Shown here: positions 39 to 62,697 of the stretch, one piece after another
How the letters are laid out: every line of letters starts with the position of its first letter
Position numbering within the stretch: position 1 is the stretch's first letter
Assembly (NCBI GenBank): GCA_043749505.1
Contig: JAYVDI010000084.1
Span: 7,339-71,338, forward strand
Direction: 5' to 3'
DNA length: 64,000 nt
From: Schlesneria sp.
GTDB taxonomy: Bacteria; Planctomycetota; Planctomycetia; Planctomycetales; Planctomycetaceae
The notes under the pieces: generated by a model
What the model was told of the DNA's origin: nothing
Databases searched by the model: none
Seen by the model: the letters and a program-made list of their open reading frames with translations, nothing else
Program-made: the position numbers and the translations under genes

Positions 39-1664
39 ATGTCCGAGCTCCTTACGATGACCGGCATCTCGAAGCGATTCGGCGCGACTCAGGCGCTGGC
101 GGGTGTTTCGTTGAGTGTTCCCGCCGGACGAGTTCTCGCGCTGATTGGCGAGAACGGTGCGGGGAAAAGCACGTTGATGAAAGTGCTCAGTGGGGCACAT
201 GGGCCGGACTCGGGGAGCATGCTACTGGCGGGACGGTCCTACGCACCGAGTGGTCCGCACGACGCGCGGCTCGCCGGGGTGAGCATGATCTATCAGGAAC
301 TGAACCTCGCGCCGGACTTGTCGGTTGAGGACAACATCATGCTCGGACAAGAGGCGCGGCGATCCGGTGCCTCACGGCTGTCGCGATGGCTTGGTCCCTT
401 CGTCCCGCTCGATCGCTCGGCGCAGCGAGTCCGCGTGAAGCAGGCTCTTGACCTGCTTGGCCATCCGCATCTCAAGCCTGAAACGCGCGTCGGTGATCTC
501 CCGATTGCCGTGCAACAACTGGTTGAGATCGCGCGGGCCTTGGTCTCCGAATCGAAGGTCATCGTGTTCGATGAACCGACCAGTTCGCTGACGCGACAGG
601 ATGTCGAGCATCTGTTCGCGGTTATCCGCAAGCTGCGCGACGCCGGACTGGGAATCGTCTACATCAGCCACTTCCTCGAAGAGATCAGGCAGGTCTGCGA
701 CTGCTACTCGGTGCTGCGCGACGGTCGTTCGGTGGGACAAGGCGAGCTGGCGGGAACGACCGACACGCAGATCGTCTCGCTGATGGTCGGCCGTGGCGTG
801 GCGGACCTCTTTCCCACCGTGGCGCACACACCGGGTGAGGTGCTGCTGTCATTGCAGGGCCTCAGCGGCGAACGGTCTCCACAACACGTGTCGCTCGAAT
901 TGCGGCGAGGCGAGATTCTCGGACTGGCCGGCTTGATCGGAGCCGGTCGCACCGAGACGCTTCGTTGCCTGTTCGGCCTCGATGCGGTGACGAGTGGAGA
1001 AGTGATGATCGCGTCGAATCGAGCGGACTGGGTAAATCGGGCCAGCTTGAAATCGAAAGCACCCCTCACCCTGGCCCTCTCCCCACAAAGCCGGGGCGAG
1101 GGAACAAGAGGGCTGCCGGACTTGACAGTACTGCCACGCTCGACGCGCGGTCGCATCCGTGCGGGACTCGGTCTCGTCTCGGAGGACCGCAAGACCGAGG
1201 GCCTCGCGCAGACACGGACGATTGCCGACAACATGACCTATAGCCGACTCGCGCCGTATGCGCGCGGTGGCGTGCTCAACTTGAAGCGACGCCGCGAGGA
1301 AGTCGTGCGTTGGATGGGGCGTCTCCAAGTCAAAGCCAACTCCCCCGAACAGACGATCGGCCAACTCTCGGGAGGCAATCAACAGAAGGTCGCCATCGCG
1401 CGTGTCCTTCATCAGCAAGCCGACATCCTGCTGCTCGATGAACCGACGCGCGGCATTGATGTGGGAACGAAGTCCGAAATCTATCGACTCATGGGCGAAC
1501 TGGCCGCCGAAGGGAAGGCGATCATATTTGTCAGTTCATACCTGACGGAATTGCTCGCCGTCTGCGATCGCGTCGGCGTGATGGCCCGAGGCCAACTCAA
1601 AGAGATCCGCCCCGCCAGCGACTGGACCGAAGAGTCGATCATGAGCATCGCCGTCTCGATCTGA
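39..1664 (+). CDS. Sugar-type ABC transporter ATP-binding protein with two nucleotide-binding domains (RbsA/MglA/XylG-like)
   Basis: 541-aa ORF with ATG at 39. NBD1 has Walker A GENGAGKST. NBD2 has the EDRK linker motif, signature LSGGNQQKVAIAR and Walker B LLLDEPTRGID. It carries an in-frame insert of about 35 aa derived from a repeat (1032-1136). An 11-codon tail of an upstream + strand ORF (..DKLLSPERFE*) ends at 33-35. Confidence 0.85.
   Translation: MSELLTMTGISKRFGATQALAGVSLSVPAGRVLALIGENGAGKSTLMKVLSGAHGPDSGSMLLAGRSYAPSGPHDARLAGVSMIYQELNLAPDLSVEDNIMLGQEARRSGASRLSRWLGPFVPLDRSAQRVRVKQALDLLGHPHLKPETRVGDLPIAVQQLVEIARALVSESKVIVFDEPTSSLTRQDVEHLFAVIRKLRDAGLGIVYISHFLEEIRQVCDCYSVLRDGRSVGQGELAGTTDTQIVSLMVGRGVADLFPTVAHTPGEVLLSLQGLSGERSPQHVSLELRRGEILGLAGLIGAGRTETLRCLFGLDAVTSGEVMIASNRADWVNRASLKSKAPLTLALSPQSRGEGTRGLPDLTVLPRSTRGRIRAGLGLVSEDRKTEGLAQTRTIADNMTYSRLAPYARGGVLNLKRRREEVVRWMGRLQVKANSPEQTIGQLSGGNQQKVAIARVLHQQADILLLDEPTRGIDVGTKSEIYRLMGELAAEGKAIIFVSSYLTELLAVCDRVGVMARGQLKEIRPASDWTEESIMSIAVSI
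1062..1108. repeat. GC-rich palindromic element, family A (CCCCTCACCCT.GCCCTCTCCCC.CAAAGC.GGGGCGAGGG), copy inside a CDS
   Basis: Near-identical copies lie at 9456-9498, 38539-38581 (inverted), 38669-38716, 56828-56875 (inverted) and 62651-62697. The ends CCCTCACCC and GGGCGAGGG can pair. Confidence 0.85.
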
Positions 1665-9370: not shown

Positions 9371-9455
9371 CGAACGCTGGTCCTTGGAATCGTTTGAAAG
9401 TGATCATGGAGGATGGGCACTCCGACCCGTCCGTCCTACGTGTTCTGATTTGGTT

Positions 9456-9498
9456 CCCCCCTCGCCCTCTCCCCGCAGAGCCGGGACGAGGGGACAAG
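9456..9498. repeat. Family A palindromic element, short copy, intergenic
   Basis: CCCCCCTCGCCCTCTCCCCGCAGAGCCGGGACGAGGGGACAAG lies between the giant gene start and the NYN gene end. Confidence 0.75.
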
Positions 9499-9532: not shown

Positions 9533-10393
9533 TCACGCTTCGTCGGCGCGGCCCTTCGGCTTGGCGACCTTTTTCGACTGGATCGGCCTCAGATACTTTT
9601 GGGCCTGTCCCGACTTGGTCGCTCGTGATTGAGTCTCGAAGACTTCCGTCGCGGCCAGCAATTGGCTGAGCTTCGAGTACCCGTAGTTGCGCGGGTCGAA
9701 ATCGGGAGCCTGGTTGGCGATGTAGCTGCCGATCCGCCCGACATAGCACCAACCGTCTTCGTCGGCGGACGACATCACCGCCGCGCGCAGCAGCTTGCCG
9801 AGGGTCGAGTCGCTCCGCAGTTCCTTGCCACTCTTCCGTGAGACAGTCGGGGCGTTCGCGGTCTCGGTTGAGTCGTCAGCCGTGACGAGGATCTCGGTGT
9901 AGACGAACTTATCGCACGCACCGACGAACGCGCGCGGCGTCTTCTTCTCACCGAAGCCCATCACCGTCATCCCTGACTCACGCAGCCGCGTCGCCAGCCG
10001 TGTGAAGTCGCTGTCGCTGGAAACCAGACAGAACCCATTAAGTCTTCCCGCATACAGCAGGTCCATCGCGTCGATGATGAGGGCCGCGTCGGTCGAGTTC
10101 TTGCCGCTGGTGTACCCGAACTGTTGGACCGGTTGAATCGCGTGCTCGTTCAGCATGTTCTTCCAACTGTTGAGCCGCGATGTGGTCCAATCGCCGTAGG
10201 CTCGCTTGATGCTGGCGATGCCGTACTTCGCGATTTCGCCGAGCAGCGTGACGATGGCAGAAGCCTGCGCGTTGTCGGCGTCAATGAGCACGGCAAAGCG
10301 GGGTTGATCGGAGTGGGGAGTCACGGGGGAAGACCTCGTCAAGAGAAGTGAGGAGCGAGCAATGGGAGACGCCCAGCATCGTCCTGTCCTCAC
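9533..10393 (-). CDS. NYN (LabA-like) domain protein with a C-terminal OST-HTH/LOTUS-like domain
   Basis: FAVLIDADN...GKNSTDAALIIDAMDLLY...FCLVSSDSDFTRLATRLRESG is a typical NYN core. The C-terminal ~70 aa are LOTUS-like (WCYVGRIGSYI...YGYSKLSQLL). The track start is a GTG at 10393. A GTG at 10324 (VTPHSDQPRFAV) is an equally plausible start. Confidence 0.75.
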   Translation of the reverse strand: MRTGRCWASPIARSSLLLTRSSPVTPHSDQPRFAVLIDADNAQASAIVTLLGEIAKYGIASIKRAYGDWTTSRLNSWKNMLNEHAIQPVQQFGYTSGKNSTDAALIIDAMDLLYAGRLNGFCLVSSDSDFTRLATRLRESGMTVMGFGEKKTPRAFVGACDKFVYTEILVTADDSTETANAPTVSRKSGKELRSDSTLGKLLRAAVMSSADEDGWCYVGRIGSYIANQAPDFDPRNYGYSKLSQLLAATEVFETQSRATKSGQAQKYLRPIQSKKVAKPKGRADEA

Positions 10394-32600: not shown

Positions 32601-33419
32601 ATGACACCACTGACCGCGATGCTGCTGAACTCAGTGCTGGTCGTGATCGCTGTGATGACGTGCTTGTGGCTGCTGAGCCTCGCTCGCCGCGACGCCAGTA
32701 TCGTCGATCCTTTTTGGGGAACCGGGTTCATCGTCGTGACGTGGTTCACGCTGACAGGGATTCCAGCAGCGCAAGCGGTCGAGCGGTCGTGGTTGCTCGC
32801 CACACTGACGACGATCTGGGGCTTGCGGCTGTCGCTGTATCTGCTGTGGCGAAACCGGGGACACGGCGAAGACCGACGGTATCGAGCGATGCGCGAATAT
32901 CACGGGCCGCGTTTCTGGTGGGTCAGTCTGCTAACGGTTTTCCTGTTGCAGGGACTCATCCTGTGGATCGTGTCGATGCCAATTCAAGCCGCGATGGTCG
33001 CAGCGGCATCGAAGCCACTCGGCTGGCTCGATCTGGCCGGCGCAAGCTTTTGGAGCATCGGCCTGTTCTTTGAAGCGGTCGGAGATTTTCAAATGGCTCG
33101 TTTTCAAGCCAATCCACAAAACGCTGGCCGAGTCATGGATCGCGGCCTCTGGCGACTGACTCGGCACCCGAATTACTTTGGCGATTTTTGCGTCTGGTGG
33201 GGGCTGTACTTGATCGCCGCTGCGGGCGGTGCCGCATGGACGATCTTCAGCCCGCTGCTGATTTCGTTCCTGCTGCTGAAGGTTTCCGGAGTGACACTAT
33301 TGGAGAAAACCATCACCAGTCGTCGTCCCGAATATGCGGCCTACCAAATGCGAACCAGCTCATTCTTTCCGTGGCCACCGAACGCGTGTCGCGCTGATCG
33401 CTCGCCTCGTCCCCAATGA
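32601..33419 (+). CDS. DUF1295 (steroid 5-alpha-reductase/ICMT-like) membrane protein
   Basis: 272 aa, multi-TM, with RDASIVDPFWG and RHPNYFGDFCVWWG motifs. It starts 3 nt after the upstream stop. Confidence 0.8.
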   Translation: MTPLTAMLLNSVLVVIAVMTCLWLLSLARRDASIVDPFWGTGFIVVTWFTLTGIPAAQAVERSWLLATLTTIWGLRLSLYLLWRNRGHGEDRRYRAMREYHGPRFWWVSLLTVFLLQGLILWIVSMPIQAAMVAAASKPLGWLDLAGASFWSIGLFFEAVGDFQMARFQANPQNAGRVMDRGLWRLTRHPNYFGDFCVWWGLYLIAAAGGAAWTIFSPLLISFLLLKVSGVTLLEKTITSRRPEYAAYQMRTSSFFPWPPNACRADRSPRPQ

Positions 33420-33447
33420 CAAATCAAGCCGTCAAGCGTTGCATTAC

Positions 33448-33646
33448 CAGCCTGTTGAAAAGGTAGGACGGGCACTCTTGCCCGTCGGTTTTCAAGCTAA
33501 GAACTCGTCCAAAAACAATGTCGTCTTTCGCTTTGCGAAAGAACGCCCTTTCGCGGAGCGAAAGGCGACAAACGGCGGAGTCATTCTTGGACAGGTTCTA
33601 AATGACGGGCAAGAGTGCCCGTCCTACAGGGTTATTCAACAGGCTG
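33448..33646. repeat. Composite palindromic element, family D (outer 39-43 nt inverted arms plus two inner 7-bp/5-nt-loop hairpins)
   Basis: Arms are 33448-33486 (CAGCCTGTTGAAAAGGTAGGACGGGCACTCTTGCCCGTC) and 33604-33646. Each arm contains the GACGGGCA....TGCCCGTC hairpin. The inner hairpins are 33524-33542 (TCTTTCG-CTTTG-CGAAAGA) and 33547-33565 (CCTTTCG-CGGAG-CGAAAGG). Confidence 0.85.
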
Positions 33647-34609
33647 TTACGCGAGGGCTTTCGCCACGGCGGCTTTGGTTTTTTCGAGGCCGGTCTGGGC
33701 GACTTCGAGTCCGTCCTGTTTCCAGTAGTTGGGGTTGAACAACTCCAGCGACAGAACGCCGCGGTAGCCGTTGTCGCGCAGGGTGCGGAAGATGCTGGTG
33801 AGCGGAGCGACACCATCGCCGCAGTAGACACGCGCGGCGTCGTTGATCGCGGCGCGCGGAGGATCGGCGGGGTAGTCATTCACATGGAAGTTGAACATGC
33901 GCCGACCGGCGAACATGTTCAACCCTTCAAAGTCTGAGCCGCCTTTATAGATGTGATAGACATCGAGCAGAAAACAGGCTCTCGGATGAGCCGCTTCAAT
34001 CCCGACGAACGCTGCTTCGCCGAGTCGGGCCAGCGTTTTTGAGAAACCCCACAGTTCGAGTTGCGGATAGACACCCTCTTGTTGGCCGATCTCACATAGC
34101 GCGCGATAGCGTTCGCCCAGTTGGAGCAGATCGAGGCCAGTCTTATCGGTGACGCCGACGGGGGGGGCGGCCAGCCGTTCGCCGCCGATCTCGCGGACCA
34201 TCCCCATGCACCGCTTGGCCTCTTCGAGTCCTTCTTTCCGTTTGGCTTCGTCTTCGTGCAGGAAGGCCGCGAAGCCGATCGCGCTTTCGACAGTCAGTCC
34301 CGCGTCGGCGATCCGCTTGCGCAGGTCAGACAGTACGCCGCCCCCTTTAACATAGTTGTCGAGCGATCGGATCCACGGTTCGATCCCGGTGTATCCGGCC
34401 TTCGTTGCGATCTCGATCTCAGAAACGGCATCGACTTTTTTTCCTTGATACTGGCACTCGCGAATCGTGCTCGTGTTGAGGCAGTACCGAAACGGAGAAC
34501 TCTTGTCCGATGCAGGCTCTGCGCCAGCAGCTCGAACTGTGGTCGAGGCAACGGTGAGCGAAGCGGCTGAGGCGGCGAAGAAGCCTCGCCGTGACAGATC
34601 GAGCGACAT
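33647..34609 (-). CDS. Sugar phosphate isomerase/epimerase (xylose isomerase-like TIM barrel) with a Tat signal
   Basis: The ATG at 34609 gives MSLDLSRRGFFAASAAS (twin-arginine). The body is AP-endonuclease-2/xylose-isomerase-like (YTGIEPW, LELWG, HVNDYP). Confidence 0.8.
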   Translation of the reverse strand: MSLDLSRRGFFAASAASLTVASTTVRAAGAEPASDKSSPFRYCLNTSTIRECQYQGKKVDAVSEIEIATKAGYTGIEPWIRSLDNYVKGGGVLSDLRKRIADAGLTVESAIGFAAFLHEDEAKRKEGLEEAKRCMGMVREIGGERLAAPPVGVTDKTGLDLLQLGERYRALCEIGQQEGVYPQLELWGFSKTLARLGEAAFVGIEAAHPRACFLLDVYHIYKGGSDFEGLNMFAGRRMFNFHVNDYPADPPRAAINDAARVYCGDGVAPLTSIFRTLRDNGYRGVLSLELFNPNYWKQDGLEVAQTGLEKTKAAVAKALA

Positions 34610-34712
34610 GGGGACGAGCCTTGAAATCGAGGAAGGAGACAACGCGGGGCGTCAGGATACGTGGGGACAGCGCGATCAGAAAGTCAGGCTGTACTGAAGG
34701 GAGGAAGACAAC

Positions 34713-35129: not shown

Positions 35130-37349
35130 ATGGGCAATCGAGCAATTCAATCAACACAGGCGATGCGGCCGCAGTATTGGCGGGGACGAAACTGGGCACG
35201 CGGCTTGGCCGCACTCGGCGTGGTGGCGGGTGTGGTCACGGGGACTTGGGCCGTTGAAGAGGCGACGAAATCGGGGCCTCCCGGTTTGAGGGGAATTCTG
35301 TCGAACGTGGCTCCGGCGGCGCTCAGCGTCGAGGAATTCGCGAAGCTCGACGGGACTTGGACTGAGTGGTCACAGGGAGCGGCGGCGGCGGTCACGGATT
35401 TCTACGCCAAACTCGATTCGTCGGACTCGAAAGAACAGCGTGCGGCGCTCGACCTGTTAAAGCGGAAGCTCGATGTGATGCAGCGGGCGATCAGTGATGC
35501 CAAGTTTGCGTCTTTGCATGACCCGTTGATTGCGCTTCACAATCGACTTGCTCGTCGCATCGACTTCGCGGAAGCGACGCTCGACACGATTGAGATGGAC
35601 CCGGTGGCCGCTCGTGCGGCGAACCTCGCCAAGGCTGGACAGGCAATTGCCTCATCCACTTCGGCGCTGCGAAGCTATCTGAATGGGATTGGCGGCGGTG
35701 GTCCGTGGCTTTCGTATGTGAAAGCGGACCAACTTGGCGCTGCACTGGCCAAGGGAGTCGATAGTGAAGCGGCGATCACGGCGGCAAAGTTGAGCAAAGA
35801 GAAGATCTCGGGACGAACGACTTTGACCGCTGAAGACCAGAAGCAGTTTCTCGGGCGACCGGCATTTCTCGCTTATGAAGCCGCCGTCGATCAGTACCTC
35901 ACCGTGGCGAATTGGCAGGCTCCGGCAGATGCCACAGAGCAGTTGCGAGGACAGCTCAAGGGTCTGTTCGATGCGACCGATGCGTACGCGGAATCGCGAG
36001 CCAAGGAAGATGCTGGCAAAGTGCGGACGGCGTATGCGGCGATCCGCAAACTCGCGCCGGATGGTGGCGAGCGGCTGTCGGCCGTTCTTCAGAAGTACCT
36101 CTTCAATTACAACAGCCGCATCGTGGCGAGCGAAGAATTTTTGAACCGATTGCTTTCGGATGCTCGCACCGAAAATGGGCAGGTCGTGGACAACGTGCTT
36201 GGGGCACAGGTCAGCGGTTACCAGACGACTTCGACGACTGTTGGTGTCGATCTTCGGCCCAGCCCGAACACAGCTCGATTTGACTTGGCCTTGTCGGGGA
36301 CAATTCAGTCCAACACGGTCGGTGTGACGAGTCAGGCAACGGTCCAGACCTCGGGTTATCACACGTTTCTCGCGGCGAAGGGGATCACCTTCGACGGCCA
36401 GAAATTCGTCACATCTCCCGCCACGATCTCGGTGAACCCACACAACACGACGACGGGGATCTCAACGAATGCCGGGGGCTTCCTGTTTGGAGGGATCGTC
36501 CGCGACATCGCTTCCAAGGAAGTGGAAGCTCGACGCGGCCAAGCCGAAGCGATCGCCGCAAGTCGCGTGCAAGATCGCGTGCTGCCCAAGTTCAACGAGG
36601 AAGTCGATCGATCATTCGCTGACGCGACCGTCAAGATTGAGAAGGAAGTGTTTGCGGGACTCCGTGCGGCGGGGCTGTATCCTGACGCGATCACGTACCA
36701 ATCGACGGACACCGCGTTGCGGGTGAATTCACGTTTAATGGGAATGGGTGAACTGGGAGCCGACTTGCCTCACAGCGGCCTCGCTTCGGATCGCGGAGCG
36801 ACGGTGATGCTCCACGAGTCGGCCATCAACAACTCGATCGACCGCATGGAACTCGCGGGACAGACGCTGAACGACACCGAACTGCGGGCGAAGATTGAAG
36901 CGTTCCTCAGTAAGGCTCTGAACCGAGCCGTGAAGTTAGACGCGGTCAAAGCTGTGGCAGACGAAGGTGATGAAGCCAAGTCGCTGAGCGCGATTTCGTT
37001 CGCACCTGCCGATCCGATGCGCGTCCGCCTCGAAGGGGGCGAATTGGTGTTGGTGATCCGCGCGGGCTTCAAGCAGGAAGGGAAAGACGACATTCCCGTG
37101 CGCGAGATCGTGGTGCCGATCGCCTTTGAAGTGAAGGGCAAGCAAATCGTGGCGACGCGCGGCAACGTGGCGTTTCCCGAGGGTGGCGGCCTCGCGACGA
37201 ACGGCGTGATCCGCAAAAAGATTCAGTCGGTCCTGCCCGACCGCACGCTCGATGGCAAGGTTGACATCAAGGGGCCGAACAAAACGGTCACCGCTTACGT
37301 CTCGCGAATCAAAGTGGCCGATGGCTGGATTGGAATTACAGTGAATTGA
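35130..37349 (+). CDS. Hypothetical membrane-anchored protein (N-terminal TM, long helical region, beta-rich C-terminus)
   Basis: ATG at 35130 with GGAG 8 nt upstream. It has coding-like composition over 740 aa. No family was recognised. Confidence 0.6.
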   Translation: MGNRAIQSTQAMRPQYWRGRNWARGLAALGVVAGVVTGTWAVEEATKSGPPGLRGILSNVAPAALSVEEFAKLDGTWTEWSQGAAAAVTDFYAKLDSSDSKEQRAALDLLKRKLDVMQRAISDAKFASLHDPLIALHNRLARRIDFAEATLDTIEMDPVAARAANLAKAGQAIASSTSALRSYLNGIGGGGPWLSYVKADQLGAALAKGVDSEAAITAAKLSKEKISGRTTLTAEDQKQFLGRPAFLAYEAAVDQYLTVANWQAPADATEQLRGQLKGLFDATDAYAESRAKEDAGKVRTAYAAIRKLAPDGGERLSAVLQKYLFNYNSRIVASEEFLNRLLSDARTENGQVVDNVLGAQVSGYQTTSTTVGVDLRPSPNTARFDLALSGTIQSNTVGVTSQATVQTSGYHTFLAAKGITFDGQKFVTSPATISVNPHNTTTGISTNAGGFLFGGIVRDIASKEVEARRGQAEAIAASRVQDRVLPKFNEEVDRSFADATVKIEKEVFAGLRAAGLYPDAITYQSTDTALRVNSRLMGMGELGADLPHSGLASDRGATVMLHESAINNSIDRMELAGQTLNDTELRAKIEAFLSKALNRAVKLDAVKAVADEGDEAKSLSAISFAPADPMRVRLEGGELVLVIRAGFKQEGKDDIPVREIVVPIAFEVKGKQIVATRGNVAFPEGGGLATNGVIRKKIQSVLPDRTLDGKVDIKGPNKTVTAYVSRIKVADGWIGITVN

Positions 37350-37386
37350 AGCCGCCGGCTAACAGCAACAATTGACGGCTCTTACA

Positions 37387-37423
37387 AGCCCCGCAGGCCA
37401 CTCGCTTGCGGGGCTGTTTCGTT
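37387..37423 (+). terminator. Rho-independent terminator
   Basis: AGCCCCGCA, an 11-nt loop, TGCGGGGCT, followed by GTTTCGTT. Confidence 0.65.
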
Positions 37424-37435
37424 GGGAGTGACGCA

Positions 37436-37523
37436 CACTAACCCGAAGCGTGAGCGAGGACGATCCCGCGCGAGACATCAACGCTGAATGTCTCATCGCC
37501 CTCGCTCACGCGGCGGGTTAGTG
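37436..37523. repeat. Palindromic element, family F (AACCCG.AGCGTGAGCGAGG ... CCTCGCTCACGC.GCGGGTT), 20 nt upstream of the copA ATG
   Basis: Arms 37436-37460 and 37499-37523. A second copy lies at 63548-63621. Both are followed by GTGTTCCT. Confidence 0.85.
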
Positions 37524-37542
37524 TTCCTAGGAGAGGCTGTTC

Positions 37543-40170
37543 ATGACTGAAGACCAATCACCGTTGCGATCACTCGCGTTGTCTTCGCTGAAGGTTCTCA
37601 ACAACGAACCGGATGCGTCGGGGCCAGCATCGACCCACGCCATCGATCCGATCTGCGGGATGAGCGTTGATCGTGCGACCGGTCGCTCGTGCGAGCGCGA
37701 TGGAACGACGTGGTACTTCTGCTGCGAGTTCTGTCGCACGAAGTTTCTCAACCCGGCACCCGCTTCGACCGAGCCTCCACTGCCCGGCACGAACTACTTC
37801 TGCCCGATGTGCCCCGGCGTGACGAGCGATCATCCCGCGAGTTGCCCGACGTGCGGCATGGCTCTCGAACCCGAATTGGCTTCAGGAACTCACGGTGACG
37901 ATGACACAGGACTGCGCGATTTGTGGAGGCGCTTCGTCCTTGCGGTCGCCTGCACGGTGCCCGTGTTCGTGCTGGCGATGGGTCCGATGATCGGGCTTCC
38001 CGTTAATCGCTGGGTCCGACCAACGACATCGTTTTGGTTGCAAGCACTGCTCAGCACGCCGGTCGTGTTGTGGTGCGGCTGGCCCTTCTGGGTGATCGGT
38101 TTCCAATCGCTGCGGACTCGTTGCTGGAACATGTTCACACTGATCCTGCTCGGTGTGGGGGCGGCCTTCGTGATGAGTCTCGTGGAGTTGTTCAGGCTGA
38201 CGTTTGGGTACTCCTCGACAGGGCACGAACAGGTTCACGCCAATCTCTACTTCGAGTCGGCGGCAGTCATCACGACGCTGGTGTTGCTCGGTCAGATTTT
38301 GGAACACCGCGCACGGCGTCGGACGGGGCAGGCGATTCGCGAGCTGATGAACCTCGCGCCGCCGATGGCATGCGTGATTCGGAACGGTGTCGAGCAAACC
38401 GTTCCACTGGGCGAAGTCATGCCGAGCGAGATGATTCGCGTCCGTCCGGGCGAGACAATTCCGGTCGATGGCTTGCTGATGGGCGAAGGTTCACTCCGTG
38501 ATGACTCACACCGCAACGCCGAGTCTTTTTCCGGTCCCGTTGCCCCCCGCCTTGGGGGGGAGAGAGTTAGGGTGACGAGGGCCGAGGCGGACACGCGACC
38601 ATTCACCGCAACAACCCCGACGGAGCCGAATGACTTTCATCCGACGCAACTCCGCTGCGAAGAGGAGACCCCTCACCCTAACCCTCTCCCCGCAAAGCCG
38701 GGGCGAGGGGACAAGGCCAAGAGTCCGTTCATCGCCTTCTCTGACCTTCATCCCTCGACCCTCAACGATCAACCTCCGCTGACGACCATCGACGAATCGA
38801 TGCTGACGGGCGAGTCGCTTCCGGTCGCGAAGGGTGTTGGCGATCAAGTGCTCGGCGGGACAGTAAACCAGACAGGCTCATTCCTGATGCGGGCGGAGCG
38901 GGTTGGTAGCGAGACGTTGCTCGCGCAAATCATTGGGTTGGTGGCGAAGGCTCAGCGCAGTCGAGCGCCCGTACAGCGGCTGGCCGATGTGGTGGCGAGT
39001 TGGTTTGTACCCGCAGTGCTGAGTGTGGCTGCGGTCACTCTCATCGCGTGGTCGCTGGCGGGATCGTCCAGTCATGGGCTGGCGAATGCTGTCGCGGTCC
39101 TGATCATTGCGTGTCCGTGTGCGCTCGGGCTGGCGACTCCGATGGCGATCACGGTGGGAATGGGGCGAGCCGCCCGCAGCGGAGTCCTCTTTCGCGATGC
39201 CGAATCGCTCGAAGAACTTCATCGCATCGACACGCTGTTCATCGACAAGACCGGTACGCTGACTGAGGGAAAGCCGAGTCTGATGAAGCTCGATCCCGTG
39301 TCAGGCTTCTCTCGCAGAGAGATCTTGCAATTGATCGCCTCTGTTGAGCAATCGAGCGAACATCCGTGGGCGCGAGCCTTCGTGAATGCCGCGAACGCAG
39401 AGGGAATCGAACTCCTGTCGGTTGCTGATTTTCTCAACGTGCCGGGGCAAGGTGTGAGCGGTCGCGTGAATCACCAGATCGTCCGCGTGGGCCGCTCTCA
39501 GTTCATTTTCGATGGATTCCGCGATCGAGTCACCGAAGGACCACCTTCCGGAGGAAGAAGTGTTCTGTTTGCGTCGGTGGATGGCCAGTGCGGTGCAATG
39601 TGTGAGTTAGAAGATGAGATTCGCTCGTCGAGTCCCTTGGCAGTGGAGGGGCTTCAAAAAAGAAACGTCAGAGTCGTATTGCTCACCGGAGATCAACTCA
39701 GCTCTGCACAGGTTGTGGCCCAGAAAGTCGGGATTGATCGAGTGGAAGCAGTGCTCAAGCCAGACGACAAGCTCACACGGATCGAAGATGCCCGTCTCTC
39801 CGGCCATGTCGTTGCGATGGCAGGAGACGGGATCAACGACGCGCCCGCATTGGCTGCTGCAAACGTTGGCATCTCGCTGGGAACCGGCACCGACGTGGCG
39901 AAGCAATCGGCGGGAGTGATCCTCGTTCAGCCCGATTTGCGCCGGATCGTCACCGCATTGGCGCTCAGTCGGGCAGTCATGACGAACATCCGCCAGAACC
40001 TATTCTTCGCGTTCGCCTACAACGCGTTGGGAGTCCCGCTCGCAGCGGGAGTTCTCGAACCCTTCGGCGGCCCGGCCCTCGATCCGATGCTGGCGGCATT
40101 GGCAATGAGTCTGAGTTCGTTGTCTGTAATTGGCAATGCGCTGCGGCTGAACGGCTTGCAGGACGAGTGA
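37543..40170 (+). CDS. copA: Copper-translocating P1B-type ATPase with an N-terminal YHS/TRASH-type metal-binding domain
   Basis: N-terminal CGMSVD...YFCCEFC and CPMCPGV...CPTCGM. ESMLTGES (TGE) motif, CPC motif (IACPCALGLATP), DKTGTLT, GDGINDAPAL. It contains a 97-aa in-frame insert (38494-38784). Confidence 0.9.
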   Translation: MTEDQSPLRSLALSSLKVLNNEPDASGPASTHAIDPICGMSVDRATGRSCERDGTTWYFCCEFCRTKFLNPAPASTEPPLPGTNYFCPMCPGVTSDHPASCPTCGMALEPELASGTHGDDDTGLRDLWRRFVLAVACTVPVFVLAMGPMIGLPVNRWVRPTTSFWLQALLSTPVVLWCGWPFWVIGFQSLRTRCWNMFTLILLGVGAAFVMSLVELFRLTFGYSSTGHEQVHANLYFESAAVITTLVLLGQILEHRARRRTGQAIRELMNLAPPMACVIRNGVEQTVPLGEVMPSEMIRVRPGETIPVDGLLMGEGSLRDDSHRNAESFSGPVAPRLGGERVRVTRAEADTRPFTATTPTEPNDFHPTQLRCEEETPHPNPLPAKPGRGDKAKSPFIAFSDLHPSTLNDQPPLTTIDESMLTGESLPVAKGVGDQVLGGTVNQTGSFLMRAERVGSETLLAQIIGLVAKAQRSRAPVQRLADVVASWFVPAVLSVAAVTLIAWSLAGSSSHGLANAVAVLIIACPCALGLATPMAITVGMGRAARSGVLFRDAESLEELHRIDTLFIDKTGTLTEGKPSLMKLDPVSGFSRREILQLIASVEQSSEHPWARAFVNAANAEGIELLSVADFLNVPGQGVSGRVNHQIVRVGRSQFIFDGFRDRVTEGPPSGGRSVLFASVDGQCGAMCELEDEIRSSSPLAVEGLQKRNVRVVLLTGDQLSSAQVVAQKVGIDRVEAVLKPDDKLTRIEDARLSGHVVAMAGDGINDAPALAAANVGISLGTGTDVAKQSAGVILVQPDLRRIVTALALSRAVMTNIRQNLFFAFAYNALGVPLAAGVLEPFGGPALDPMLAALAMSLSSLSVIGNALRLNGLQDE
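38494..38784. mobile_element. 291-nt composite repeat-derived insertion inside copA (two inverted family A copies flanking ~90 nt)
   Basis: The canonical ...VDG.V..G.S.VDESMLTGES is split here as GLLMGEGS-[97 aa]-TIDESMLTGES. The insert contains a family A copy in reverse at 38539-38581 and a forward copy at 38669-38716. Confidence 0.8.
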
Positions 40171-40366
40171 TGTCAACGTTGTGCGGCGGAGCGCGTTGCG
40201 TTCACCAGCAGTTCAGCATCGGAAGGCTCTGATTTGGCTGGCCTCCAACGCGGAGTTGATGGTTGTGAGACTTTCCTTCGACCAATAGAATGCCCCCCTA
40301 TTTCAGCAGCTTTTGATCTGACCGGATCGGTCGCTGCGGCTGCAAAATTGGAGTTGGACCGAGCGC

Positions 40367-40843
40367 ATGCGTTTTCTCCTCATTGATCGAATCACCGAGT
40401 TGGTGCCGCATCAGTCGGTCTCGGCCCTCAAAAATTTGTCGCTGTCTGAAGAATATCTCGCTGACCACTTCCCCGGTTTTCCTGTCATGCCTGGCGTCCT
40501 GATGCTTGAAACGCTGGTTCAGGCGGGTGGGTGGCTGATTCGGCACTCAGAAGACTTCGCCCAAAGCACCATCCTGCTGAAAGAGGTGCGGGCGATCCGA
40601 TACAACAACTTCGTTTCCCCTGGGAACACGCTTCAGGTTCAGATGACTGTCAGGAAGCGAGATGGCGGCGTTTGGGACTTCACCGGAACTGGAACGGTGA
40701 ACGGGACATCGGCAGTTTCCGCCCGGCTGACTCTCGAAGCCTTCAATCTCGCTGATCGTAATCCCGAGTTGGCCGAATCTGATTCCCACCGCCGAGAGGT
40801 CTATCGCGGCCTCTTCCAGCAAATCTGGAAGCCTGCGGCTTGA
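40367..40843 (+). CDS. FabZ/FabA-like 3-hydroxyacyl-ACP dehydratase (hot-dog fold)
   Basis: MRFLLIDRI...EEYLADHFPGFPVMPGVLMLETLVQ is the typical dehydratase active-site region. Confidence 0.8.
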   Translation: MRFLLIDRITELVPHQSVSALKNLSLSEEYLADHFPGFPVMPGVLMLETLVQAGGWLIRHSEDFAQSTILLKEVRAIRYNNFVSPGNTLQVQMTVRKRDGGVWDFTGTGTVNGTSAVSARLTLEAFNLADRNPELAESDSHRREVYRGLFQQIWKPAA

Positions 40844-45460: not shown

Positions 45461-45599
45461 GTCATCACACTCCACGTGGCGCTGAGTGATATGTTCAATC
45501 GCCCCGTGTGCCTACCATGTCCTTGAGCGACCAAGAACCCACAGCGCTGCGGCATGCGGCTCGCCAATGTGTCACCTTTGGTTGCGAGATATCTCTCGC

Positions 45600-45651
45600 A
45601 AACACGAATGCCGGAGACGACCACAGTTGTTCGTCTCCGGCATTCGTGTTT
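45600..45651. terminator. Bidirectional terminator hairpin between the convergent ribD and YTV genes
   Basis: A perfect 21-bp stem AAACACGAATGCCGGAGACGA / TCGTCTCCGGCATTCGTGTTT with a 10-nt loop. The A/T runs are part of the stem ends. Confidence 0.7.
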
Positions 45652-55542: not shown

Positions 55543-56655
55543 CTACCTGTCGCGCGACAGCGGCATGATGACATAGGTGTAGTGATCTTCCGTGGCGAAC
55601 ACGGCCGGGTCTTCGTGCGTGCTGAGCTGACAGCGGAACTGTGACCCGCTGTCGAGTGACTTCAAGAAGTCGGCAACGTAGCGCGGATCGAACGTGATCT
55701 TGATGTCTTCGCCATCGAACGGGATCGGTAGCTCAATCTTTGACTGCCCGATGTCGGCGGCTTGGCTGTTCAGCTTCAGGATTCCTTTGCCGAACGTGAA
55801 ATCGACGCCGCGACTTTCTTCGTTTGTCACGATTTGAGCCTGCCGGATCGCGGCGTAGAACGGGGCGACCACCATGTCGATCGTGGCTTTGAACGAAGTC
55901 GGGACAACCTTACGCCAATCGGGAAAGCGACCTTGAACGAGTTGGCTTGTGATCGTTGTCCCGCCGCAGCGGATGGCAATGTCGTTGGCATGGATCGCGA
56001 TGTGCGCCTCAGCCTCGCCGTCGGACAGGCTGCGTTCGAGCAAGTTCATGGCTTTGGACGGAACGACGGGAGGCGTCGCTGGCTTCTCAGGTGATCCAAC
56101 CGTGCGGCAATCTCCTGCGACGACAGCCAACCGGCGGCTGTCGGTCGCGGCGAAGGTCGCTCGATCGGAAGTCAGCTCGACTTGCACGCCGCCGAGGGCA
56201 TAGCGGGTGCTTTCGGTATCGGTGGCGAAGATCGTCCGGTGAATCAACTGCTTCAGCGTCGCAGCCTTTACTACGAAGTACTCTTCGTCCTCAAACGTCG
56301 CGACGGGAGGGAAGTCGGCGGGGTCTTCGGCGGAGAGACGAAACTCGCTGTACCCGCAACGAATCCAGATCGCGTCGCCGGTGATCTCCAGCTTCACCAC
56401 ATCGTCGGTCAACTCACGCAAGACCGACAATACGCGGGCGGTCGGGAGCAACGCTTCGCCATTCGAGTCGGCTTCGATATCGGGCAAGTTACAGCGAATG
56501 CCGATCTCGCTGTCGTTGCCGATCAGCGTCGCTTTGTCCCCCGAGACGACCAGCTTGATGTTCTTGAGAATATCCTTCGTCGTGCGACTCGGCACGACAC
56601 CGGCCACGGTCTGAAAGGCGTTGGTGAGAGTCGCTCGTTGACAGATGATTTGCAT
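55543..56655 (-). CDS. dnaN: DNA polymerase III beta sliding clamp
   Basis: The ATG at 56655 gives MQIICQRATLTNAFQTVAGVVPSR. It is 370 aa with a three-domain clamp pattern and a C-terminal YVIMPL. The track ORF extends 52 codons further upstream. Confidence 0.9.
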   Translation of the reverse strand: MQIICQRATLTNAFQTVAGVVPSRTTKDILKNIKLVVSGDKATLIGNDSEIGIRCNLPDIEADSNGEALLPTARVLSVLRELTDDVVKLEITGDAIWIRCGYSEFRLSAEDPADFPPVATFEDEEYFVVKAATLKQLIHRTIFATDTESTRYALGGVQVELTSDRATFAATDSRRLAVVAGDCRTVGSPEKPATPPVVPSKAMNLLERSLSDGEAEAHIAIHANDIAIRCGGTTITSQLVQGRFPDWRKVVPTSFKATIDMVVAPFYAAIRQAQIVTNEESRGVDFTFGKGILKLNSQAADIGQSKIELPIPFDGEDIKITFDPRYVADFLKSLDSGSQFRCQLSTHEDPAVFATEDHYTYVIMPLSRDR

Positions 56656-56827
56656 GGCGAAACGGTGCTTTTGAATAAGGGAAAGAGTCAATCCTCGGGG
56701 CGGATTTCGCGGCGACAGGCCGCAGGTGGAATGGGCCATTTTGAGTGGGCGGATTGTAGCCAAGTTCGCTCCAAAACGCAGCCGTCCGAGCTGCGTCAAA
56801 ACAGGGGGCAAACTTTCGTTGGAAAGG

Positions 56828-56875
56828 CTTTGTCCCCTCGCCCTGGCTTTGGGGGGAGAGGGCTAGGGTGAGGGG
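56828..56875. repeat. Family A palindromic element, inverted orientation, intergenic
   Basis: CTTGTCCCCTCGCCCTGGCTTTGGGGGGAGAGGGCTAGGGTGAGGGG. Confidence 0.85.
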
Positions 56876-62650: not shown

Positions 62651-62697
62651 CCCCTCACCCTAGCCCTCTCCCCACAAAGCTGGGGCGAGGGGCCAAG
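62651..62697. repeat. Family A palindromic element, intergenic
   Basis: CCCCTCACCCTAGCCCTCTCCCCACAAAGCTGGGGCGAGGGGCCAAG. Confidence 0.85.

Follow-up and report, generated by a model that had tools for sequence, protein, structure and literature searches.

Within a 64,000-nucleotide stretch of the genome of the planctomycete Schlesneria sp. (GenBank assembly GCA_043749505.1, contig JAYVDI010000084.1, positions 7,339 to 71,338 of the forward strand; from here: the window), a gene for a CopA-like copper-exporting P-type ATPase carries an in-frame segment of 291 nt at positions 38494 to 38784, in which two copies of a short palindromic repeat, here called family A, lie in opposite orientations. 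This insert is probably selfish or neutral DNA that is tolerated in a permissive loop of the actuator domain (A-domain) of a working pump, with the two repeat arms being homogenised by conversion or repair. An earlier note on this DNA had described the segment as a composite MITE (miniature inverted-repeat transposable element) and had considered the pump to be unusually tolerant, neo-functionalised or functionally dead. Purifying selection on the rest of the gene, the predicted disorder of the segment and the variability of the loop among orthologues favour the tolerant pump.

Results

The pump gene and the position of its insert

The complete open reading frame at 37543 to 40170 on the forward strand encodes 875 aa and is assigned, by its domains and motifs, to the P1B-1 (Cu+/Ag+) P-type ATPases of the CopA-like kind. 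N-terminal YHS and HMBD metal-binding domains precede the E1-E2_ATPase and HAD hydrolase domains in Pfam searches. Among the NCBIfam models, TIGR01511 (copper-translocating P-type ATPase, ATPase-IB1_Cu) gave 540.9 bits where the cutoff is 397, and TIGR01525 gave 572.1 (cutoff 346). The threshold of the E. coli CopA equivalog NF007952 was missed (499 versus 1316), which marks the protein as a member of the subfamily rather than an E. coli-type equivalog. Both TIGR01511 and the Pfam E1-E2 model match the pump as two stretches, the second Pfam stretch starting at residue 415, which corresponds to profile position 49.

The metal-site signature of P1B-1 pumps consists of CPC in transmembrane helix (TM) 4, YN(x4)P in TM5 and M(x2)SS in TM6. 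All three are intact here, as CPC 524-526, Y826-N827...P832 (YN..P 826-832) and MSLSS 855-859. The P-type core motifs TGE (422-424), DKTGT (568-572), SEHP (605-608) and GDGINDAP (761-768) are likewise intact, and most of them are invariant alignment columns. Sequence and alignments thus bear out the earlier statement that the reading frame is preserved and that the downstream catalytic motifs CPC, DKTGT and GDGINDAP are unharmed. The PVDG codons (P307-G310, 38461 to 38472, forward strand) mark the last conserved strand before the insert, with columns P307, V308, D309 and G310 invariant. The codons of the catalytic TGE dephosphorylation loop follow at 38806 to 38814 on the same strand. T422, G423 and E424 are all invariant in one alignment (A1), while in a second alignment of 109 sequences (A2) G423 and E424 are invariant and T422 is nearly so.

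Between these landmarks the window pump has 106 residues from PVDG to DES, compared with the canonical 9, a net gain of 97 aa (L318-T414). Exactly 9 residues separate PxDG and DES in 60 of the 120 best homologues; 58 of these 60 fall outside the planctomycete subclade described below and have loops resembling KLTEGKSSV, and the other two belong to it and read TLMDEMTTI/V. A phmmer alignment to Legionella pneumophila CopA (LpCopA, 3rfu) breaks at the same place: the window protein up to ...PVDGLL corresponds to CopA residues 191-264 and TIDESMLTGE... to residue 270 onward, so that about 102 window residues stand where CopA has about 5. Loop lengths and CopA alignment hence support the earlier claims that GLLMGEGS and TIDESMLTGES lie 97 extra residues apart and that a repeat-derived in-frame insertion at 38494 to 38784 sits just ahead of TGE. 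Alignment to CopA orthologues and structures, which had been proposed for fixing the boundaries, showed that the insert replaces LpCopA residues 265-269, with a boundary uncertain by a few residues; 7 residues remain between its end and TGE.

The canonical P1B-1 Cu(I)-ATPases LpCopA (3rfu, 4bbj) and Archaeoglobus fulgidus CopA (7r0g) match the window pump in architecture and in all catalytic and metal-site motifs, and sequence identity to LpCopA is 43%. The window pump differs in its YHS and HMBD N-terminus, where canonical CopA has a ferredoxin-like HMA domain, and in the roughly 102 residues that take the place of the LpCopA hairpin turn 265-269.

Structure model of the pump

An AlphaFold2 model built from the 109-sequence alignment reached a mean predicted local distance difference test score (pLDDT) of 81.3 and a predicted template modelling score of 0.76. 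The best Foldseek matches in the PDB were the CopA structures 4bbj (E 1.9e-50), 3rfu and 7r0g, on which the remainder of the model superposes. Insert residues 327-411 were modelled at pLDDT 29-36 and without secondary structure, between the confidently predicted strands 309-313 and 414-417. According to the LpCopA alignment, the insert replaces the turn of a beta-hairpin, the second strand of which runs on into the TGE loop. Its composition is rich in proline (15.8%) and depleted of L, I, V, M, W and Y, with histidine at 4.2% compared with 1.4% in the remaining pump protein. We conclude that the insert is probably a proline-rich disordered loop. The structure modelling suggested earlier yielded a low-confidence loop between confident A-domain strands, while its projection from the domain surface stays an inference; the turn would point away from the interface with the phosphorylation domain (P-domain).

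Two further variable regions were noticed in this protein family. The nucleotide-binding domain (N-domain) of the window copA gene (39291-39810, residues ~583-756) has a nucleotide identity of only 46-50% to all 12 orthologues examined at the DNA level, between flanks of 76-91%, with dN of 0.62-0.75 (nonsynonymous) and saturated dS (synonymous substitutions per site), and the orthologues themselves comprise several N-domain types. This pattern looks like cassette-like mosaicism or recombination. In the model, the window N-domain has pLDDT values of 65-98, and the invariant residues E602, E606, H607, P608, F630 and D691 are retained in it. A second variable insertion site lies directly before the conserved LYFESAAVITTLVLLGQ helix, where P0009, P0010, P0011, P0013, P0015, P0016 and P0018 have an extra 25-35 aa (e.g. 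HRDDYGRPDYRSVKRDWLVGSASRDEPRHAPHH; A1 columns ~301-345) and the window protein has none (residues ~230-233).

Layout of the insert

Five parts can be told apart within the insert, with nucleotide identities given as pairwise means over the eight insert-bearing genes (window plus seven orthologues). An acidic, histidine-containing left tail (LRDDSHRNAESFSGP; 38494 to 38538, forward strand) shows an identity of 0.75, and of 0.77 at third codon positions. It is followed by the left arm, a family-A palindromic unit on the reverse strand (38532 to 38584; nhmmer match 38532-38579, E 8e-11) that is partly degenerate in this genome. The spacer between the arms (38585 to 38668, forward strand) has an identity of 0.78 at all and 0.73 at third positions, and no similarity of this spacer to any other sequence was found. 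The right arm (38668 to 38716, forward strand; nhmmer E 1.6e-15) is a hairpin-forming family-A unit that encodes PHPNPLPAKPGRGDK and has no window-private base. The right tail (…SDLHPSTLNDQPPLT; 38717 to 38784, forward strand), delimited by alignments, has an identity of 0.71. The profile search thus recovered the two oppositely oriented palindromes of the earlier note, whose arm coordinates were right within a few bases.

The arms form an inverted repeat of 31 nt (38545-38575 and 38673-38703) with 87% complementarity and 97 nt between them. The QPST..QPP part of the right tail is present also in P0005, P0013 and P0019, orthologues that have no left arm, which suggests that this part is older than the left arm.

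Orthologues and age of the insert

A search of a protein collection yielded 19 close relatives of the pump with 60-74% identity. Seven of them (P0002, P0003, P0004, P0008, P0009, P0010 and P0011) have the same two-arm insert in frame, following the pattern ...SGPLSPRLGGERVRVRGAEADTRPL...EEKPPHPNPLPRRRGRGDKA...QPSTLNDQPS-LTTIDES. They come from seven assemblies, namely five ENA samples, one JGI metagenome and one NCBI metagenome-assembled genome, which excludes an assembly artefact as the source of the segment. In a codon alignment, all length differences among the inserts are multiples of 3. The loop varies from 9 to 107 aa within the planctomycete subclade that is recognised by LTT[IV]DES.

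Insert states were also read from the DNA of five further orthologues. There is no insert in P0017 and P0014, P0019 has the QPSTIDHQP tail alone, and P0013 has the tail together with a modified right arm. In P0005 the family-A right arm is interrupted by a nested palindrome with a GTAG tag, in which a 14-bp stem comes after CAGCCTGTTGAAAAACGTAG (DNA fold z -7.55); this palindrome recurs in intergenic DNA of other loci and at 33447-33647 of the window. A third palindrome occupies the loop of P0016 (z -7.49), and also of P0006, P0007, P0012, P0015 and P0018. The same A-domain hairpin turn has thus been used by at least three palindrome families, once by nesting.

Over the core of the gene the nearest relative of the window is P0005 (nucleotide identity 0.86-0.91), yet its insert is a different one. 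Compared with the seven other two-arm orthologues, which have the MPDD N-terminus, the window shows an identity of 0.74-0.82 in the insert, about equal to the identity in the core. Either the two-arm state would be ancestral and remodelled in some lines, or it would have been moved by recombination. With seven orthologues bearing it, the insert is an old, common feature and not a recent event private to this genome.

Outside this planctomycete clade no homologous segment was found, the other ~60 homologues having the canonical 9-residue turn, and the family-A repeat was absent from 80 loci of other phyla. The presence of the segment in unrelated phyla, which had been named as evidence against an insertion, was thus not observed. 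A genome-contig scan with the whole pump protein returned no close relative among the matches listed, which were P1B ATPases of other phyla recognised via generic MAGDGIND-type patterns. A comparison of the insert peptide alone with the protein collection gave no candidate with a sufficient number of shared 5-residue words; since orthologues bearing the peptide exist, this reflects the index and not a true absence.

The pump gene lies in two synteny contexts, and the two-arm insert occurs in both (window versus L081-L092). One context has FabA-like, short-chain dehydrogenase and acyl-carrier genes downstream (window, L083, L089, L090 and L092), the other an RmlD-like gene upstream (L081, L084 and L086-L088) or DUF2339 downstream (L081, L082 and L091).

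Selection on the pump and within its insert

Ratios of nonsynonymous to synonymous substitution rates (dN/dS) were calculated by the Nei-Gojobori method; the core comprises the gene minus its insert and its mosaic N-domain. In comparisons between the eight insert-bearing genes, core dN/dS was 0.09-0.20 (mean 0.14) at dS values of 0.37-0.89. Between the window and each orthologue it was 0.12-0.22, or 0.12-0.33 if the N-domain was included. Together with the shared insert, the low core ratios indicate that the pump has been under purifying selection since it gained the segment, which argues strongly against a dead gene.

The insert itself gave dN/dS values of 0.34-1.17. Nucleotide identity in its tails and spacer was 0.71-0.78 at all positions and 0.67-0.77 at third positions, with 40% invariant columns. 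The core had 0.81-0.86 at all and 0.63-0.71 at third positions, with 31% invariant columns when third positions only are counted. Because the tails and spacer show no codon-position signature and because of the dN/dS values of the insert, they seem to be near neutral and to evolve at roughly the synonymous rate.

The two arms follow a different pattern. Their identity was 0.91 at all positions and 0.88 and 0.95 at third positions (0.95 for the right arm), with 78% invariant columns. Synonymous sites are frozen while the peptide of the right-arm loop varies as AKPGRGD, RRRGRGD, QRRGRGD or RGRGRGD, with the hairpin remaining in each variant; hence what is conserved in the arms is the nucleotide sequence, not the peptide. 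Read against the orthologue alignment, the window left arm has 5 private substitutions in 46 bases that weaken the palindrome, consistent with its decay in this lineage.

The family-A repeat in the window

The family-A unit is GC-rich, palindromic and about 48 nt long. It has the form CCCCTCACCCTAACCCTCTCCCC-loop-GGGGCGAGGGGAC, folds as a hairpin and occurs in the consensus and arm variants CCCCGCAAAGCCGGGG and CCCCCGAAGACGGGGG. With an nhmmer profile from 18 units, six copies were found in the window, and the 22-mer core with up to 3 mismatches gave 5 matches, compared with 0.00 expected from shuffled sequences. Hairpin z-scores ranged from -1.1 to -4.8. Three of the six copies lie inside coding sequence and in frame; the other three are intergenic, that at 9459-9498 apparently so. 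All copies outside copA are single units.

One of these single units is located inside an ABC ATPase gene (1061 to 1108, forward strand; nhmmer E 3.4e-13) and is in frame. Two intergenic units were detected by both the core search and nhmmer: one upstream of dnaN (55543-56811, reverse strand) at 56828 to 56875 on the reverse strand, and one between an FtsX-type permease gene and an ABC ATPase gene at 62651 to 62697 on the forward strand. A shorter, degenerate unit on the forward strand at 9459 to 9498 (nhmmer E 3e-6) is apparently intergenic.

The ABC ATPase gene with the in-frame unit (39-1664, forward strand) encodes a two-domain, sugar-type protein (AraG/XylG/RbsA-like) in which the repeat is translated as ...KAPLTLALSPQSRGEGTRGL... 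In comparison to two plasmid-borne homologues, from Gemmatirosa and Streptomyces, this protein has 34 extra residues (…NRADWVNRASLKSKAPLTLALSPQS…LTVLPRSTRG) exactly at the unit. The extra segment falls between the Walker A motif and the EDRK region of the second nucleotide-binding domain, and the NCBIfam match is split at residues 328-331. A separate extra segment of 12 aa lies near residue 111. A PDB sequence search did not resolve the insert of the ABC ATPase.

No GTAG or CGTC tag was seen on family-A units in an alignment of the units, and no Rfam family matched in 37000-40500. RNAalifold on the 18 units found no compensatory pair, a result that is uninformative as the stems are invariant G/C runs. 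A G-C to C-G swap beside the right-arm loop was considered as a compensatory change and rejected, being outside the consensus helix.

The G-rich strand of the unit reads GGGGAGAGGGTTAGGGTGAGGGG; its four G-tracts, separated by 3-nt loops, make up a canonical G-quadruplex motif, with TTAGGG as one part. This strand has the mRNA sense in the copA left arm, where the orthologues keep the motif and the window has it disrupted (GAGAGAG; 38545-38580).

Tests for a composite mobile element

As in MITEs, inverted repeats, the complementary 31-nt stretches described above, are present in terminal-like positions. No target-site duplication was found flanking the insert. An 11-nt direct repeat (38529 and 38819, 290 nt apart) was examined as a possible target duplication; it is partly inside the insert, adjoins a protein-level repeat, GE[TS][IL]PV, and was judged no better than chance. 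The left tail (..DDSHRNAESFSGPVA) as a degenerate duplicate of DESMLTGESLPVA was likewise rejected, since blastn-short comparisons of the insert with the remaining gene stayed at chance, with no match under E 0.1 in the eight orthologues.

The 64-kb window contains the whole composite once only. A metagenome scan for exact matches to a spacer 18-mer produced 22 matches, all of them chance matches (up to 31 nt), and even P0004, the JGI orthologue, differs in this 18-mer by one base. As other family-A copies in the window are single, the spacer 18-mer had only chance matches in the metagenome scan and the orthologues show a stepwise, nested build-up, the composite MITE proposed earlier is not supported; the two-arm segment appears to have been assembled stepwise and not to have moved as one composite.

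Other repeats in the window

An element of about 200 bp resembling MITEs and REPINs, which are doublets of repetitive extragenic palindromes (REPs), lies at 33447-33647 between the convergent genes 32601-33419 (forward strand) and 33647-34642 (reverse strand). This doublet has the inverted ends CAGCCTGTTGAAAAGGTAGGACGGGCACTCTTGCCCGTC, which are GTAG-tagged hairpins, and belongs to a second repeat family, family B, which carries its GTAG tag as ...GTTGAAAAGGTAGGACGGGC... Further copies of family B were observed in the P0005 copA loop (L083 5966-6050), at L092 2793-2829 and at L089 18-117 and 7175-7195.

At 45540-45570 a stretch of 18 nt (…CGGCATGCGGCTCGCCAA…) agrees exactly with one end of the third palindrome family, that of the P0016-type copA loops, and is followed at 45598-45650 by a perfect palindrome of ~20 bp (acacgaatgccggagacgacc…ggtcgtctccggcattcgtgt), possibly a terminator. 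The truncated family-A unit at 9459-9498, which has lost the 5' CCCTCACCCTAA part, lies beside a GTAG-type half-site (cccgtccgtcctacgtg) at 9428-9445, and both repeats (9428-9498) are downstream of gene 9533-10393 (reverse strand). Different repeat families thus seem to cluster together.

Discussion

Weighing the explanations

In the explanation that we consider probable, the PVDG-DES loop of this planctomycete lineage was already extended when two family-A units, oppositely oriented, inserted into the A-domain beta-hairpin turn. Since the downstream domains (TGE, CPC, DKTGT...) are essential and would be lost with any frameshift or stop, only in-frame and stop-free inserts would survive, and translation of the insert would be a consequence of frame retention. 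The loop is predicted to project from the end of the hairpin away from TGE, so that the A-domain would still dock and the pump would still work. Tails and spacer would drift neutrally, while the arms would stay near the family consensus, most likely via gene conversion with genomic copies or via hairpin-templated repair.

Two observations on the arms weigh against this explanation in its simplest form. Conservation of the arms far exceeds that of neutral DNA: 78% of their columns are invariant, compared with 40% for the remainder of the insert (Fisher p 2e-9) and 31% for third positions of the core (Fisher p 1.6e-17). The right-arm loop variant is patchy relative to the core tree, and P0002 and P0011, the closest core pair (dS 0.35), differ in it. 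Pure neutrality therefore fails for the arms, and gene conversion, repair or a sequence-level function is needed. The patchy variants suggest gene conversion. Hardly any further family-A copies are present in the orthologous loci that were compared (3-13 kb).

A sequence-level function would mean that the arms are kept for a role of the nucleic acid, through arm pairing in the mRNA, or a hairpin or G-quadruplex that tunes translation, stability, processing or protein binding. We regard such a role as unlikely, though as the most serious competitor. The high share of invariant arm columns compared with the 31-40% elsewhere, synonymous positions included, would be expected from it, the peptide-changing variants of the right-arm loop all retain the hairpin, the minimum-free-energy fold of the insert RNA pairs both arms, and the four G-tracts of the unit's G-rich strand fit as well. 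However, the fold of the whole insert is marginal (z -1.95; 9 of 200 shuffles fold as well), the uninformative RNAalifold result on the 18 units contributes no compensatory pair, and no Rfam family matched. The left arm is decaying in the window, and one or both arms are missing from P0013, P0017 and P0019, so they are dispensable. Concerted evolution of the repeat family would give the same conservation without function. That the arms have been selected as an intragenic element of the copA message, be it a long-range mRNA stem, a hairpin/G-quadruplex pair or a protein-binding site, we rate slightly lower still; if it were true, the A-domain hairpin would be an evolutionary landing pad that repeatedly recruits regulatory palindromes into the coding region.

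Co-option at the protein level, as a disordered regulatory or tethering loop such as an acidic or histidine-rich arm binding metal or a chaperone, or as an autoinhibitory element, is an improbable alternative. It could draw on the retention of the frame in eight lineages, on the D/E/H/S-rich left tail of the orthologues (DEDSISDDSHSDDES), on the histidine content of the insert and on the invariant or nearly invariant arm peptide PHPNPLP...GRGDK. But the conservation of this peptide is matched at synonymous sites and hence is an effect at the nucleotide level, and the need for the downstream domains already explains why the frame is kept. Tails and spacer change at a roughly synonymous rate with insert dN/dS up to 1.17, the insert is modelled at a pLDDT of ~30, and orthologues at 64-75% identity have no insert or unrelated ones. 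With non-repeat parts evolving in this manner, a segment modelled as disordered and close orthologues that lack the insert (P0014, P0017) or have a different one, the neo-functionalised pump considered earlier is disfavoured. A functionally dead gene is contradicted more directly. A recent composite MITE that inactivated the pump and left a gene merely looking open is very improbable, in spite of an insert 7 residues from the catalytic TGE loop, of inverted, terminal-like arms and of a window N-domain (39291-39810) with 46-50% nucleotide identity to every orthologue. The insert is older than the split of the eight orthologues (dS up to 0.89), which keep it in frame and have core dN/dS values of 0.09-0.20; no catalytic motif is damaged, the N-domain model reaches pLDDT 65-98 with its invariant residues kept, and neither a target-site duplication nor a second composite copy was found. 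This possibility is largely refuted. Least credible of all is that the segment stems from faulty assembly or sequencing, or that it is taken out of the transcript or the protein as an intron or intein. Palindromic repeats can mislead assemblers, and the segment is an exact multiple of 3, but the same structure occurs in seven other independent assemblies, no Rfam intron family was found at any E up to 1 in 37000-40500, and Pfam recognised no Hint/intein domain. To our knowledge, 97 aa is smaller than the known mini-inteins.

Relation to known repeat systems

What marks out the Rickettsia palindromic elements (RPEs; PMC10969869) is their in-frame position within functional genes. The window case resembles them in that small palindromic repeats occur between genes and in frame within genes, the encoded peptide is judged compatible with the fold, and the insertion is retained in orthologues. 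Several unrelated genes are hit in one genome, here copA and the ABC ATPase gene within 64 kb. The differences are the host, a free-living bacterium of the Planctomycetota instead of Rickettsia, and the repeat itself, RPEs measuring ~100-150 bp compared with the ~48 nt of the GC-rich family A, with no evident sequence relation; homology would not be expected from the different lengths and base compositions. Unlike RPEs, the insert is a compound of two inverted units and non-repeat sequence (97 aa), and a single loop has taken up members of at least three palindrome families across orthologues.

REPs wholly inside open reading frames have been described in several phyla, including clusters that encode 43-82 aa, and GTAG or CGTC tetranucleotide tags define REP super-families (Di Nocera et al. 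2013, PMC3733652); an inverted REP doublet is the unit of a REPIN (PMC8049555). Family A is REP-like in being short, hairpin-forming and multi-copy, and its inverted doublet recalls a REPIN. REPs are mostly extragenic with some in open reading frames, and family A likewise occurs both between genes (3 of the 6 copies in the window) and within them. A GTAG tag beside a hairpin, as in REPs, is present in the nested element of P0005 and in the window doublet 33447-33647. Family A differs by having neither the GTAG nor the CGTC tag, by arms that are 97 nt apart and by other copies being singletons, so the doublet is not evidently a replicating unit. A RAYT (IS200/IS605-like Y1) transposase was not found in the 64 kb, no search aimed at one having been made.

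With bacterial MITEs such as Correia/NEMIS, ERIC, Nezha and RUP (PMC10969869, PMC3184786) the insert shares the size range (291 nt, ~185 nt from arm to arm), terminal inverted repeats and the lack of own coding capacity, and occasional in-frame intragenic copies of MITEs are known. It is unlike them in having no target-site duplication and no other whole copy, and its seeming terminal repeats are independent units that are found singly elsewhere. In summary, the window case seems to work like RPEs and REPs, but we do not file it in the RPE family, nor, because the tag is absent, in the GTAG/CGTC REP families. Particular to it are the host phylum, the site beside the catalytic loop of a P-type ATPase, the compound nature of the 97 aa and the recurrent, nested use of one loop.

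Significance

The insert appears to provide a clear and dated case, from a host other than Rickettsia, of an important enzyme that has taken in small palindromic repeats close to a catalytic loop and is still under selection. A loop shared by at least three palindrome families, one of them nested, is a natural system for the question of targeting, in which repeats attract repeats, versus tolerance. For annotation, repeat-derived peptides such as PHPNPLP..GRGDK and LTLALSPQSRGEGT in planctomycete proteins should not be taken as domains or as signs of a pseudogene. For the family of P1B-ATPases, the turn between PVDG and DES is a highly permissive site, with 9-107 residues in nature, and is useful for placing tags or sensors in copper pumps.

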